From the IMG/VR virus record IMGVR_UViG_2534681701_000015: DNA of 32,028 bases. One strand, written 5' to 3'. The notes beneath the pieces are model-generated. The model saw only the letters and a program-made list of their open reading frames with translations. It made no database searches and was not told the DNA's origin. Source of the stretch: a virus. Taxonomy: Duplodnaviria; Heunggongvirae; Uroviricota; Caudoviricetes. This document shows, in pieces, positions 17,743 through 21,413 of the stretch. The translations under genes and the position numbers were made by a program. Numbering within the stretch: position 1 is the first letter of the stretch; every line of letters begins with the position of its first letter.

Positions 17743-18108
17743 ATGCGTGATATTCAAATGGTTCTTGAACGTTGGGGGGCATGGGTGGCAAATAATCACG
17801 AGGATGTCACCTGGTCGTCTATTGCTGCAGGATTTAAAGGACTAATCCCTTCAAAAGTAAAATCCCGCCCGCAATGTTGTGACGATGACGCGATGATCAT
17901 TTGTGGGTGCATGGCTCGCCTGAAAAAGAACAACAGCGATTTGCACGATTTATTAGTGGATTATTATGTAGGTGGTATGACGTTTATGGCGCTTGCCCGT
18001 AAACATGGGCGTTCTGATTGCTGGGTTGGGCGTTTATTGCAAAAGGCTGAAGGTGTAGTTGATGGCATGTTAATGATGTTAGAAATTGAGCTAGAGATGG
18101 ATCGTTAG
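17743..18108 (+). CDS. Q: Late-gene antiterminator Q
   Basis: ATG 17743 with SD GGAGA; [25 protein letters not shown]... with a Cys cluster; last gene before the lysis region. Confidence 0.8.
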
Positions 18109-18191
18109 AAGACCTCTTATTGAGGGGGTAATTGAATCAGTTTAATGTGTGGGGAGTCGATTTATTCTCCCCATTTATTTAATTAATTTAC

Positions 18192-18638
18192 TTAAGGTTT
18201 TAATTCATCAAGACGTTGTTGGATAGTGTTTTTGCTTGCGTTGTCTGTTATAGCCATTTGTTGTACTTGCCCCATTGCCATTTGAGTTTCCATCCACATA
18301 TCGGCCCACACTTTTGTATCGTTATTAACTTGAGCGATAGTAAATCTGACTTTTGATACCGGGGTTGTTGAATAGGCATTTCCGATTAACATTTGTCCAA
18401 AAACAGCAGAGCCGCCTTCCAGTTCTTTACCACATATAACACTGCTGTTATCCGCGTTGTAAATTATCAACCCTCTACTATTGCAGTAATTCACAAGGGC
18501 ATCTTTGACTTTATCTTTTGTCGTATTTTGATAAACCCCCTCAGGTTTTCCTGATTGAGTTTTCTTTATCAATGGTACGGAAGAAGTACAACCTGAAATG
18601 ATAGTTGCGCTAAGTAATAGTACAGTCATTTTATTCAT
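18192..18638 (-). CDS. Lipoprotein moron (148 aa) encoded antisense between Q and the tRNA cluster
   Basis: Signal peptide plus lipobox MNKMTVLLLSATIISGC; visibly AT-rich; hairpin GGGGAG..CTCCCC at 18151-18172 just beyond its stop. Confidence 0.7.
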   Translation of the reverse strand: MNKMTVLLLSATIISGCTSSVPLIKKTQSGKPEGVYQNTTKDKVKDALVNYCNSRGLIIYNADNSSVICGKELEGGSAVFGQMLIGNAYSTTPVSKVRFTIAQVNNDTKVWADMWMETQMAMGQVQQMAITDNASKNTIQQRLDELKP

Positions 18639-18767
18639 GTTTCTTATCCATTGTTAAGGGTATACCCACACAATTATTTTTATTGGAGATGAATAATCAA
18701 CCGTTTACAATCGTAAAAAATCAAATATGCTGTTAAGAGTGGTTACTTCGCCACACAACTTAAACCC

Positions 18768-18788
18768 GCCGCTGAGCGGTTTTTTTTG
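18768..18788 (+). terminator. Hairpin plus T8 terminator-like element upstream of the tRNA cluster
   Basis: CCGC-TGA-GCGG followed by T8, then GTACCTG. Confidence 0.4.
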
Positions 18789-18868
18789 TACCTGTAAACT
18801 TGGTGCAGTACAGTAAACACGCTGGTGGACAAGTGAAAAACAGCATTTAATCAGGCCTTCTGAAGATA

Positions 18869-18906: not shown

Positions 18907-18982
18907 GGCCCTTTAGCTCAGTGGTGAGAGCGAGCGACTCATAATCGCCAGGTCGCTGGTTCAAATCCAGCAAGGGCCACCA
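18907..18982 (+). tRNA. tRNA with CAU anticodon (ileX/ileZ-like tRNA-Ile2 or Met)
   Basis: Cloverleaf folded by hand: acceptor GGCCCTT/AAGGGCC, D-arm GCTCAGTGGTGAGAGC, anticodon loop CTCATAA, T-loop TTCAAAT, 3' ACCA. Confidence 0.8.
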
Positions 18983-18983
18983 A

Positions 18984-19060
18984 CTGCCACTAGCTCATCA
19001 GGAAAGAGCGTCAACCCTTTAAGTTGAGAGTGCGAGGTTCGAGTCCCCGGTGGCGGTCCA
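18984..19060 (+). tRNA. tRNA-like gene, identity uncertain (anticodon loop CCTTTAA; UUU/Lys if canonical, but C at position 33)
   Basis: Acceptor CTGCCAC/GTGGCGG (one G-U), D-arm GCTC..GAGC, anticodon stem TCAAC/GTTGA, T-arm CGAGG-TTCGAGT-CCCCG (one mismatch), 3' TCCA. Confidence 0.5.
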
Positions 19061-19062
19061 GT

Positions 19063-19138
<76 letters not shown>

Positions 19139-19141
19139 TGT

Positions 19142-19216
<75 letters not shown>

Positions 19217-19507: not shown

Positions 19508-19723
19508 ATGAAATCCATGGACAAAATTTCAACGGGCATTGCCTACGGCACCTCCGCAGGCAGTGCTGGCTACTGGTTTTTACAGTGGCTTGATCAGGTC
19601 AGTCCGTCACAGTGGGCTGCGATTGGTGTACTGGGGAGTCTGGTGCTGGGCTTCCTGACTTATCTGACAAATCTGTACTTCAAAATAAGAGAAGATAAGC
19701 GTAAGGCTGCACGGGGAGAGTAA
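19508..19723 (+). CDS. S: Pinholin, phage-21 S21 type, with dual-start motif
   Basis: [71 protein letters not shown]; SD GGAGG 7 nt before the ATG. Confidence 0.9.
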
Positions 19724-19727
19724 TTCA

Positions 19728-20072
19728 ATGACACAAAAATATGAACTGATTGTGAAAGGGATCCGCAATTTTGAGAATAAAGTTACGGTAACTTTAGCAT
19801 TACGGGACAAAAAACGCTTTGACGGTGAAATTTTAGACCTGGACATCTCGCTGGACCGTGTTGAAGGTGCCGCGCTGGAGTTTTATGAGGCAGCAGCCAG
19901 AAGGAGCATCAGACAGGTCTTCCTGGATGTTGCTGCCGGGTTATGTGAAGGGGATGAGCAGTCACCGGAAAAGCGCCCCATAATTTTAGAGGCGCAGGGT
20001 GTGTGGATAACCTACAAAGGAAAACTGCCGGGAAGAATTACTGGTTCACTGAAGACTCCGCCGAAATGGTAA
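19728..20072 (+). CDS. Hypothetical 114-aa protein inserted between holin and endolysin
   Basis: ATG 4 nt after the holin stop, SD GGGGAGAG; no recognisable motif. Confidence 0.5.
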   Translation: MTQKYELIVKGIRNFENKVTVTLALRDKKRFDGEILDLDISLDRVEGAALEFYEAAARRSIRQVFLDVAAGLCEGDEQSPEKRPIILEAQGVWITYKGKLPGRITGSLKTPPKW

Positions 20073-20310
20073 TTTCACCAGCATATTTTTCTTCCAGTAA
20101 TACCGCCAGCCACTTGAAAGAATTTTGTTGTTGCTGGGACCATTTGGGGTTGAGTGATTCAAGCTGGAGCGATGCCAGTGTTGGTTGCATTTGTTCCTTG
20201 GGAATTGAGAATGCCAGATATGAAAATGCGACAGTAAGGGCATTTACATCATCCCGAAGCTTGGAAATGCAGTCGAGCAACTCCTGTAGAGAAATGGTGC
20301 TATTGTCCAT
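20038..20310 (-). CDS. Hypothetical 90-aa protein, convergent with and overlapping the 3' end of the 114-aa ORF
   Basis: ATG 20310 with SD AGAGAGGA 6 nt upstream (the caller's TTG start at 20316 is probably too long); 35-bp 3' overlap with 19728-20072. Confidence 0.45.
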   Translation of the reverse strand: MDNSTISLQELLDCISKLRDDVNALTVAFSYLAFSIPKEQMQPTLASLQLESLNPKWSQQQQNSFKWLAVLLEEKYAGEITISAESSVNQ

Positions 20311-20415
20311 AAACAATCCTCTCTATTGTATTTAACTATTCCTTGCCTGATTCAACAGGCCGGGACAGATAAACATATCCAGGGTTCAGAAACCGATAAA
20401 TCCTGATAAATATCC

Positions 20416-20949
20416 ATGAGCGCAAAAATCAAATACGGCCTGTCAGCTGCTGTTCTGGCGCTGATTGCTGCAGGCGCGTCTGCTCCTCAAATACTTGACC
20501 AGTTTCTGGATGAAAAAGAGGGTAACCACACTACGGCATACCGCGATGGTTCCGGTATATGGACCATCTGTCGTGGTGCCACAATGGTGGATGGTAAGCC
20601 CGTCATACCGGGAATGAAGCTGTCGAAGGAAAAATGCGACCAGGTTAACGCTATTGAACGTGATAAGGCGCTGGCATGGGTGGAGCGCAATATTAAAGTA
20701 CCACTGACCGAACCACAGAAAGCGGGTATAGCGTCATTTTGTCCCTATAACATTGGCCCCGGTAAGTGTTTCCCGTCGACGTTTTATAAGCGGCTGAATG
20801 CCGGTGATCGTAAGAGTGCATACGAGGCGATTCGCTGGTGGATAAAAGATGGTGGGCGCGATTGCCGCATACGTTCAAATAACTGCTATGGACAGGTTAT
20901 TCGTCGTGACCAGGAAAGCGCATTAGCCTGTTGGGGGATAGATCAGTGA
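20416..20949 (+). CDS. R: SAR endolysin (GH24 lysozyme)
   Basis: N-terminal signal-anchor-release segment [16 protein letters not shown]; catalytic E...D...T pattern in [20 protein letters not shown]. Confidence 0.9.
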
Positions 20950-21413
20950 GCAGAGTCGCCGCGATTATTTATGCTCTGGTTATCTGCATCATCGTCTGCC
21001 TGTCGTGGGCGGTCAATCATTGCCGTGATAACGCCATCGCCTACAAAGAACAGCGTGATAAAAAAGTCAGTGAGCTGAAGCAGGCGACCGCCACCATTAC
21101 TGACATGCAGCAACGCCAGCGTGCTGCTGATGTACTCGATGCTAAATACACGAAGGAGTTGGCTGATGCGAAAGCTGAAAATGATGCTCTTCGGCGCAAG
21201 CTTGATAATGGTGGTCGGGTGCTCGTCAAAGGAAAATGCTCTGTGCCATCCTCAGCCGAAACCTCCAGCGCCTCCGGCATGGGCAATGATGCCACCGTCG
21301 AACTCTCTCCAGTTGCTGGACGAAACGTTCTCGGTATCCGGGACGGAATCATCAGAGACCAGACAGCACTGAGAACGCTTCAGGAATATATCAGGACGCA
21401 ATGCCTTCGATGA
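20946..21413 (+). CDS. Rz: Spanin, inner-membrane subunit Rz
   Basis: GTG overlapping the R stop (GTGA); N-terminal TM segment [19 protein letters not shown] followed by coiled-coil-like sequence. Confidence 0.8.
21166..21372 (+). CDS. Rz1: Spanin, outer-membrane lipoprotein subunit Rz1, embedded in Rz in the +1 frame
   Basis: [22 protein letters not shown] lipobox then Pro-rich [11 protein letters not shown]; SD AGGAG 7 nt before the ATG. Confidence 0.8.

Follow-up and report, generated by a model that had tools for sequence, protein, structure and literature searches.

A lipoprotein gene between Q and the late promoter of a lambdoid prophage is best explained as a moron and may encode an entry-exclusion factor

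Introduction

Which phages a lysogen can resist, and perhaps also which host defences, depends on prophage cargo that remodels its outer membrane. Among the described systems with which the present locus can be compared, the lipoprotein Llp of phage T5 is encoded beside the receptor-binding protein, faces the periplasm from the outer membrane and inactivates FhuA, and lipoproteins of the Llp kind are thought to be common in coliphages (PMC9586334). Gp15 of HK97 is encoded by a tail-operon moron and excludes superinfecting phages, blocking DNA entry in a manner that depends on the incoming tail (PMC3594210). Here we analyse a 148-aa lipoprotein gene at positions 18192-18638, minus strand, of the virus record IMGVR_UViG_2534681701_000015, a stretch of 32,028 nucleotides referred to in its entirety as the window. 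A preliminary description of the window had located this gene in the late leader of the prophage, transcribed against the late operon. That placement does not hold: the late promoter pR' (18704-18731) lies downstream of the gene in the plus direction, so the gene is neither in the late unit nor opposed to it.

We conclude that the gene is best explained as a moron, a self-contained expression cassette between a Q933-type Q gene and pR'. Outside E. coli its homologues are found mostly within the tail-tip modules of lambda-type phages, and we use this association to weigh what the protein might do.

Results

The cassette and its borders

The cassette is defined by six features, given as coordinates, strand and description:

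17743-18108, plus strand: gene for antiterminator Q of the Q933/QuuD family (RefSeq annotation), the left border, convergent with the lipoprotein gene
18148-18175, unstranded: GC-rich hairpin between the convergent Q and lipoprotein genes (terminator scan and folding)
18192-18638, minus strand: lipoprotein coding sequence, ATG start, 148 aa (open reading frame list and identical RefSeq coding sequence)
18588-18638, minus strand: signal peptide and lipobox, MNKMTVLLLSATIISG followed by Cys17 (sequence; Cys17 invariant in alignments A1 and A4)
18673-18700, minus strand: putative sigma-70 promoter for the lipoprotein gene (predicted by a consensus scan in which 9 of 12 positions match)
18703-18792, plus strand: late-promoter block pR', the right border (identity to mEp332 and Stx phages, PA30 spacing)

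At the right border, pR' consists of a -35 hexamer TTTACA (18704-18709) and a -10 hexamer TATGCT (18726-18731) separated by 16 nt, with an inferred start near 18738 and a short leader; the counterpart in the Stx2 phage PA30 is TTTACG-16-TATCAT. The 90-nt block has 85.5% identity to the mEp332 segment between an antisense nmpC gene and holin gene S. Hundreds of Stx phages have a counterpart of about 80% identity, which sets in within the final 14 nt of Q933. In the Sakai Stx phages, the 3' end of tR' was mapped 258 nt downstream of the pR' start (Sy et al., PMC7547250). The second terminator of PA30 ends near locus position 1795; counting back gives a start near 1537, some 8 nt past the -10 hexamer, and because this spacing fits the mapped pR'-tR' distance we identify the block as pR' with its Q-utilisation region. 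A leader hairpin (18768-18780) followed by eight T residues lies behind pR' and folds weakly (z -1.3). An Rfam scan returned four tRNAs only, the pR' leader matching no family. Since pR' lies past the 5' end of the lipoprotein gene, the cassette (about 18109-18700) is, on this reading of the promoters, inserted between Q and pR', convergent with the former, divergent from the latter and outside the late transcript.

In Stx phages, the StxS_L RNA region is homologous to the pR' block in its 5' part. The window has no counterpart of the second PA30 terminator, which corresponds to the mapped tR' and to the StxS 3' end, so that any constitutive pR' RNA would here be only about 50 nt long.

On the opposite strand, the candidate promoter of the lipoprotein gene comprises a -35 hexamer TTGATT (18700-18695), a 16-nt spacer and a -10 hexamer AATAAT (18678-18673), from which a transcript would start near 18666 with a 5' untranslated region of about 27 nt. 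Its -35 hexamer and that of pR' are divergent and 3 nt apart. A second minus-strand match at 18657-18628 was rejected, as its -10 falls within the coding sequence and is unusable for the lipoprotein start codon. At the left border, the window Q protein shares 79% identity with the Q933-type Q of PA30 across 121 aa. The hairpin that separates it from the lipoprotein gene folds at -15.9 kcal/mol (z -4.05) on the plus strand, where it carries a U-rich tail, and at -11.2 kcal/mol (z -2.5) on the minus strand, where there is no U tract. On the plus strand it is terminator-like and would terminate Q transcripts that are not antiterminated; on the minus strand, because the U tract is absent, strong termination is less likely than a stabilising effect on the 3' end of the lipoprotein mRNA.

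Moron-like anatomy

Criteria for morons (Juhala et al. 2000) were taken as summarised in PMC3594210. The base composition of the gene is unlike that of its neighbours, with a GC fraction of 0.37-0.39 against 0.51-0.57 in the upstream DUF968/Q region. As candidate signals of its own it has the 9-of-12 promoter match (18700-18673) and the hairpin, which lacks a U tract on the gene's strand. Comparison with related phages outlines the insertion: Q933 and pR' overlap in PA30, and about 590 bp part the Q stop (18108) from the pR' -35 hexamer (18704) here. At a different site, K and I overlap in phage PhiR40_1, and elsewhere homologues of the lipoprotein gene are inserted between K and I. These tail-module copies have a GC fraction of 0.36-0.46, against 0.50-0.56 in most of their flanks; about 100 nt of spacer precedes them, and a canonical terminator, a GC hairpin with a T run, follows directly.

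The reading frame at 18192-18638 is a genuine gene under purifying selection and not a chance open reading frame, because the frame is kept in homologues at 50-72% identity, dN/dS among them is 0.06-0.13, the AlphaFold2 model is confident, and relatives number 31 close and about 820 distant clusters. Its RefSeq counterpart, from a strain 100% identical over the segment, is WP_001038608.1, labelled 'hypothetical protein'. The gene is antisense to both its flanks, Q (17743-18108, plus strand) and holin gene S (19508-19723, plus strand). Other elements of the preliminary description are thus borne out: it had described an AT-rich 148-aa lipoprotein gene with a classic lipobox, lying in a cargo slot of the Q-to-lysis interval of a lambdoid prophage and belonging to no nameable family, and the open reading frame, its I-S-G-C motif with Cys17, its composition and its place between Q and S all agree, as do the homology and structure searches described below.

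A lipoprotein of a catalogued but uncharacterised family

The N-terminus, MNKMTVLLLSATIISG followed by Cys17, combines a basic n-region with a hydrophobic core and the lipobox I-S-G-C (IISG directly before Cys17). It divides into MNK, MTVLLLSATI and ISG ahead of Cys17, and it fits the lipobox [LVI][ASTVI][GAS]C. The Pfam LPAM_1 match is weak (E 0.22), as is usual for so short a model. In enterobacteria, Asp at the +2 position keeps a lipoprotein in the inner membrane; the residue after Cys17 is Thr, and outer-membrane sorting of the mature protein is therefore predicted. Among 136 near-full-length proteins from the best 150 of a profile search, a lipobox-like motif occurs in 122, in which the +2 residue is A, V, S, T, M, L, G, Q or I and in none D, and a T-x-S-G-x-P-E-like motif stands right behind the anchor in 123. 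We infer that Sec would export the product, that Cys17 would be lipidated and that the Lol system would deliver the protein to the outer membrane, in whose inner leaflet it would face the periplasm. The mature protein, Cys17-Pro148, comprises 132 aa, with a computed mass of 14.5 kDa and pI of 8.5.

The full length of the protein (residues 1-148) matches PHROG 3152, 'unknown function', along profile positions 1-148 of 148 (E 1.3e-104). No family was matched in Pfam, NCBIfam and PADLOC profile scans, a profile search of Protein Data Bank sequences gave nothing better than E 0.3, and the viral structure library BFVD held no match at E <= 0.001 and none with a convincing TM-score. Literature searches by accession or PHROG identifier found nothing on WP_001038608.1 or PHROG 3152, and the BASEL paper offered nothing usable about exclusion lipoproteins. 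The family is accordingly already catalogued, as PHROG 3152 and as a RefSeq 'hypothetical' protein, and is uncharacterised.

An exhaustive profile search gathered 823 representative clusters at E <= 1e-3, 408 of them at <= 1e-10, and 31 clusters are close relatives; a second, word-indexed homology search contributed few further named proteins. The close family conserves C52 and C69, which probably form a disulfide, a loop I-G-N-A-Y-S-T-T-P and a strand K-V-W-A-D-M-W-x-E-T-Q-M-A-M-G-Q. An AlphaFold2 model built on a 20-sequence alignment (pLDDT 85.8, pTM 0.76) has the topology beta-alpha-beta2-alpha-beta3-alpha, a helix-grip fold, and resembles the helix-grip domains of BamC, KA1, Flpp3 (DUF3568) and DUF4468/TBP-like structures at 6-17% identity. 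We interpret this modelled likeness as a common fold, homology being undemonstrated: none of the BamC, Flpp3, KA1 and DUF4468 families gives a profile match to the lipoprotein. The protein does not qualify as a member of the BamC (NlpB) family, which would call for a profile-level match and for two helix-grip domains after a BamD-binding N-terminal segment.

Forty distant relatives, a sample biased to long members, were examined for additional domains. C-terminal PDZ domains of the DegP/DegS/RseP/Prc type are present in 15 and a BamD/CpoB-like TPR domain in one; apart from these add-ons no Pfam or NCBIfam model was recognised, and none covers the core domain. With about 820 representative clusters, the core is a candidate new domain family. 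In Sphingosinicella (locus L017, 5740-6699), the domain is joined to a PDZ domain of the DegP/DegS type.

Homologues outside E. coli mostly reside in tail-tip modules

The genomic context of divergent homologues differs from that of the window. Of 25 IMG/VR homologues with 40-70% identity, 23 lie inside a lambda-type module of tape-measure protein (TMP), M, L, K, I and J genes, on the strand of the tail genes, with neighbours confirmed by Pfam. Five junctions are used: K/I, tape measure/M, M/L, the junction between analogues of L and K (DUF6950/NlpC), and the position upstream of the tape measure. The nearest relatives outside E. coli, from Salmonella Choleraesuis (72%) and Jejubacter (70%), are at K/I. 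Eight of 13 reference-genome loci are likewise tail-tip loci, in Photorhabdus, Morganella, Proteus, an Enterobacteriaceae metagenome-assembled genome, Symbiopectobacterium, Xenorhabdus and two Haemophilus. Three distant metagenomic relatives were also looked at, and their surroundings were too short or gave no information. Every phage-borne copy with tail genes in the retrieved DNA belongs to a phage with a lambda-type tail tip. The Q-adjacent place of the gene in E. coli is therefore an exception for the family.

The tail-tip modules that carry the gene often hold further inserts at the same junctions, among them genes for Rha, Bro-N, KilA-N, Arc/HicB-like and HTH proteins, as in Haemophilus (L011, 5224-7402), Jejubacter (L100, 1703-5904) and a third locus (L090, 7112-7994). 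Because such genes often share the junctions, the tail-tip junctions behave as moron islands.

Distribution in E. coli and other cargo of the same slot

At least 80% of the 661-bp segment from the end of Q to pR' is present in 185 of 5,426 complete E. coli genomes (about 3%); the lipoprotein coding sequence is likewise found in 185, with at least 99% identity in 176. The carriers include UTI89, NU14, O157:H7 strains and blood and urine isolates; commensals and isolates from animals and the environment have it as well. The arrangement is a fixed one in E. coli: all 50 E. coli-type IMG/VR loci run S...gene...Q, the gene being opposite in strand, and 47 have the exact 25-nt pR' core. Among 50,697 phage records searched by tblastn, the only isolated phages with the gene are PhiR40_1 and PhiR55_1, induced from ECOR strains, in which, as in the 185 genomes, it is annotated 'hypothetical'; a Genome Research paper on Chi-rich lambdoid phages makes no mention of the two. 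In four sampled E. coli prophages carrying the gene, the J C-termini are 64-100% identical.

In E. coli strain 510016 the lipoprotein gene is 100% identical within a decayed prophage. The lysozyme gene of that prophage (L001, 8317-11668) is truncated by an IS21-family element and an IS1 remnant, followed by valS, and the lipoprotein gene, Q and the tRNAs are intact. In the O157:H7 strain NE 1092-2 (L096, 25644-29993), the Q-lipoprotein cassette is followed by Ile-Arg-Arg tRNAs and genes for TerB-family, DUF3927 and SASA-family esterase proteins, the layout of a Stx-phage late region without stx, joined to an HK97-type head module.

The slot between Q and pR' holds an antisense porin gene of the NmpC/OmpD type in mEp332 (L003, 3117-4214) and in PhiR49_1_star (L101, 1051-2193), and in phages of the Q933/QuuD type it appears to collect antisense outer-membrane cargo. 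The NmpC porin gene of the LF82 prophage Perceval is transcribed 10-fold above the prophage background in lysogens (PMC9928086), and by analogy we take it to be an equivalent cassette at the same site.

Discussion

Comparison with described envelope proteins of phages

The Cor proteins of phi80, N15, HK022 and T1 and Llp of T5 resemble the present product in being phage-encoded, periplasm-facing outer-membrane lipoproteins with an internal disulfide, properties that, apart from phage encoding, are predicted here, and their genes are tied to tail and receptor-binding genes, as are most homologues of the present family. Cor and Llp are small lipoproteins of about 60-80 aa; against 61 aa for Llp, the mature protein here has 132 aa and a modelled alpha/beta helix-grip fold, and the family resides within TMP-M-L-K-I, or beside Q in E. 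coli, rather than at the receptor-binding end at J. Neither Cor/Llp nor any other exclusion family was among the Pfam, PHROG and PADLOC matches at E <= 1. HK97 gp15 offers a parallel to the presumed anatomy of the present gene, being a promoter-gene-terminator cassette of deviant GC content between tail-operon genes of a lambdoid siphophage; an envelope protein as well, it is related to the bacterial, non-phage protein YebO (PMC3594210). It differs in being a small inner-membrane protein rather than an outer-membrane lipoprotein, and the sequences are unrelated.

In slot and orientation, the gene agrees exactly with the NmpC/Lc/OmpD porin cassettes of DLP12, PA-2, mEp332 and PhiR49_1_star, which are also antisense between a Q933/QuuD-type Q gene and a pR' block and also encode outer-membrane cargo; their products are beta-barrels of about 365 aa, not lipoproteins, and show no homology to the protein described here. 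The Lc porin of PA-2 lowers OmpC, the receptor of PA-2. Bor of lambda, Iss and TraT are likewise outer-membrane lipoproteins that prophages or plasmids carry, with genes that lie near those for lysis and are active in the lysogen, but the present lipoprotein has no Pfam (Lambda_Bor) or PHROG match to them. The bor gene sits after Rz, where no equivalent lipoprotein gene was found in the window.

A possible role in entry exclusion

We propose, with a probability of roughly 0.4, that the lipoprotein is made by the prophage, resides in the outer membrane and serves to exclude entry, or to modify the receptor or envelope, in defence against siphophages whose tail tips are related. To judge from the anatomy of the cassette and by analogy, it would be transcribed in the lysogen from its own sigma-70 promoter, independently of Q, and its 132-aa helix-grip domain would face the periplasm from the inner leaflet of the outer membrane. 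There it might bind an outer-membrane or periplasmic component needed by lambda-type tail tips, or the tail-tip/tape-measure conduit of the incoming phage itself, and related siphophages would thereby be kept from productive adsorption or DNA delivery. The placing of homologues in tail-tip modules suggests, without proving, such an envelope change against incoming phages, and it lends indirect support to the plausible Cor/Bor-like role put forward in the preliminary description. In function the protein would then resemble Cor and Llp, products of tail-linked genes that jam FhuA from its periplasmic face (PMC9586334), or HK97 gp15, which blocks injection in dependence on the tail (PMC3594210). 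Retention of the gene in the decayed prophage of strain 510016 is also in keeping with the proposal.

Several observations weigh against this proposal. PADLOC gives no match for the lipoprotein; Pfam and PHROG scans reveal no sequence relation to Cor, Llp, Bor or TraT, the fold differs, and the mature protein is two to three times larger than these comparators. E. coli copies are not linked to the tail module but move with the DUF968-Q module, among prophages with different head modules and with tape-measure proteins only 27% identical. Five of the reference-genome loci are chromosomal and not phage-borne (one at truA-dedA, three in Halomonas and the Sphingosinicella PDZ fusion), and because such relatives exist the helix-grip fold may serve a housekeeping envelope role that phages have borrowed for host fitness. 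The tail-region junctions, in turn, may be permissive sites for any moron. A comparison of lipoprotein and J covariation speaks neither for nor against the proposal: an apparent discordance, lipoproteins at 99% paired with J C-termini at 18%, proved to be an offset artefact, since the J proteins concerned share 92% identity across about 1,045 residues, with differences at the extreme C-terminus only.

A broader form of the exclusion hypothesis, which we regard as unlikely, is that PHROG 3152 and its roughly 820 clusters make up a widespread, unrecognised class of lipoproteins by which lambda-type siphophages exclude entry. On this view a domain common among the outer-membrane lipoproteins of proteobacteria, BamC-like in its helix-grip fold and often fused to PDZ domains of the DegP/DegS type, would have been recruited by phages. 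Its target would be no variable receptor but a step of tail-tip penetration that is conserved and takes place in the periplasm, such as one involving the tape-measure conduit, the K peptidoglycan hydrolase or a host factor linked to BAM or outer-membrane proteins. Such a class would account for the clustering of independent insertions in TMP-M-L-K-I-J across Enterobacterales and Pasteurellales.

Alternative explanations

The most serious alternative, doubtful as we judge it, is a host-fitness or virulence factor of the Bor or Lom type, which would benefit the lysogen by altering the outer membrane in its adhesion, permeability, stress tolerance or resistance to serum or complement, and would not act on phages directly. 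Bor and lom, near lysis and tail genes of lambdoid phages, have such roles (PMC3594210). Extraintestinal pathogenic strains, UTI89 and NU14 among them, widely carry the gene, as do blood and urine isolates, although it also occurs in commensal, animal and environmental ones, and it is retained at 100% identity in the decayed prophage of strain 510016. The likeness of the fold to BamC helix-grip domains and the frequent non-phage chromosomal relatives, some fused to DegP/DegS-type PDZ or BamD/CpoB-like TPR domains, point in the same direction, towards a general envelope role. What a fitness function leaves unexplained is the tail-tip concentration of independent insertions in five genera, and Pfam and PHROG detect no similarity to Bor, TraT/Iss or Ail/Lom. 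It is less probable still, indeed improbable, that the protein inhibits or modulates a periplasmic peptidoglycan hydrolase, either the NlpC/P60-JAB protein K of an incoming phage, in the manner of T4 Sp, or the prophage's own endolysin or lysis timing. Homologues do most often adjoin K or K-like (DUF6950/NlpC) genes, periplasmic exposure is predicted, and in the model the conserved strand W111-D113-W115-E117-Q119 and loop G86-N87-x-Y89-S90-T91 would suit the binding of glycans or peptides.

Two further explanations concern the late operon. An antisense gene within a Q-dependent late leader might be silenced by late transcription or might itself damp the late operon, and the position of the gene between Q and S, antisense to both, first invites this idea. 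We consider it very improbable: pR' (18704-18731) is past the 5' end of the gene, a consensus scan of the stretch from the Q stop to the gene's 3' end found no promoter-like site, and the order is kept in all 50 E. coli-type contigs, with the exact 25-nt pR' core in 47. The gene could be opposed only by early transcripts from pR that run on past Q, and the terminator-like hairpin on the plus strand intervenes. The idea that the protein is an outer-membrane spanin subunit or another lysis component is effectively refuted. It draws on weak PHROG matches to Rz-like spanins (E 0.02-0.035), confined to residues 1-45 in the signal peptide region; the lysis cassette is already complete with S, R, Rz and an embedded Rz1-type lipoprotein (21121-21372), the lipoprotein gene is outside the late operon, and a globular helix-grip fold is unlike the short, proline-rich o-spanins.

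Should the entry-exclusion proposal prove correct, the protein would represent a structurally new class of lipoprotein beside Cor and Llp, with a bearing on host range in phage therapy, and would offer a handle on the poorly understood periplasmic step of DNA delivery by siphophages. If no phage phenotype were found, it would be one more uncharacterised moron. The concept itself is an ordinary one; what the analysis adds is the corrected promoter map and the association with tail-tip modules, the latter yielding a testable hypothesis of exclusion.

Two cargo sites and other features of the window

The window as a whole has the layout of a lambdoid prophage, running from early genes through RusA, KilA-N, DUF968 and Q to the lipoprotein gene, four tRNA genes, S, YdfR, lysozyme, Rz/Rz1, terminase, head and tail. 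The tRNA genes form a separate feature:

18907-19216, plus strand: four tRNA genes, sense-strand cargo downstream of pR' and outside the cassette (ARAGORN, Rfam, RefSeq)

Their order is a tRNA with anticodon CAT (Met according to ARAGORN, Ile according to RefSeq), Lys(TTT), Thr(TGT) and Gly(TCC); the first is probably a lysidine-modified tRNA-Ile2. The tRNA module is shared with PhiR47_1, whose 250-aa Q is unrelated, and PhiR40_1 has a DNA methylase gene in its place. Because tRNAs and methylase are swapped there, the site downstream of pR' constitutes a second, independently exchanged cargo site. The corrected map, Q followed by the cassette and then pR', thus gives lambdoid phages of the Q933 type two distinct cargo sites: one upstream of pR', for antisense, autonomous genes for outer-membrane proteins, and one downstream, Q-dependent, with tRNAs here and stx in Stx phages. 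Such a two-site map should be useful for annotating accessory genes of prophages.

Within the lysis region, the Rz1-type o-spanin lipoprotein gene (21121-21372, plus strand) is a second lipobox gene of the window; its proline-rich product has the lipobox LIMVVG/CSSK, with predicted cleavage before the Cys, and it lies in the +1 frame of Rz (20931-21413). Between the YdfR-family and lysozyme genes, inside the lysis cassette, an antisense open reading frame of about 90 aa (20038-20316, minus strand), a RefSeq 'hypothetical protein', overlaps the 3' end of the YdfR-family gene.

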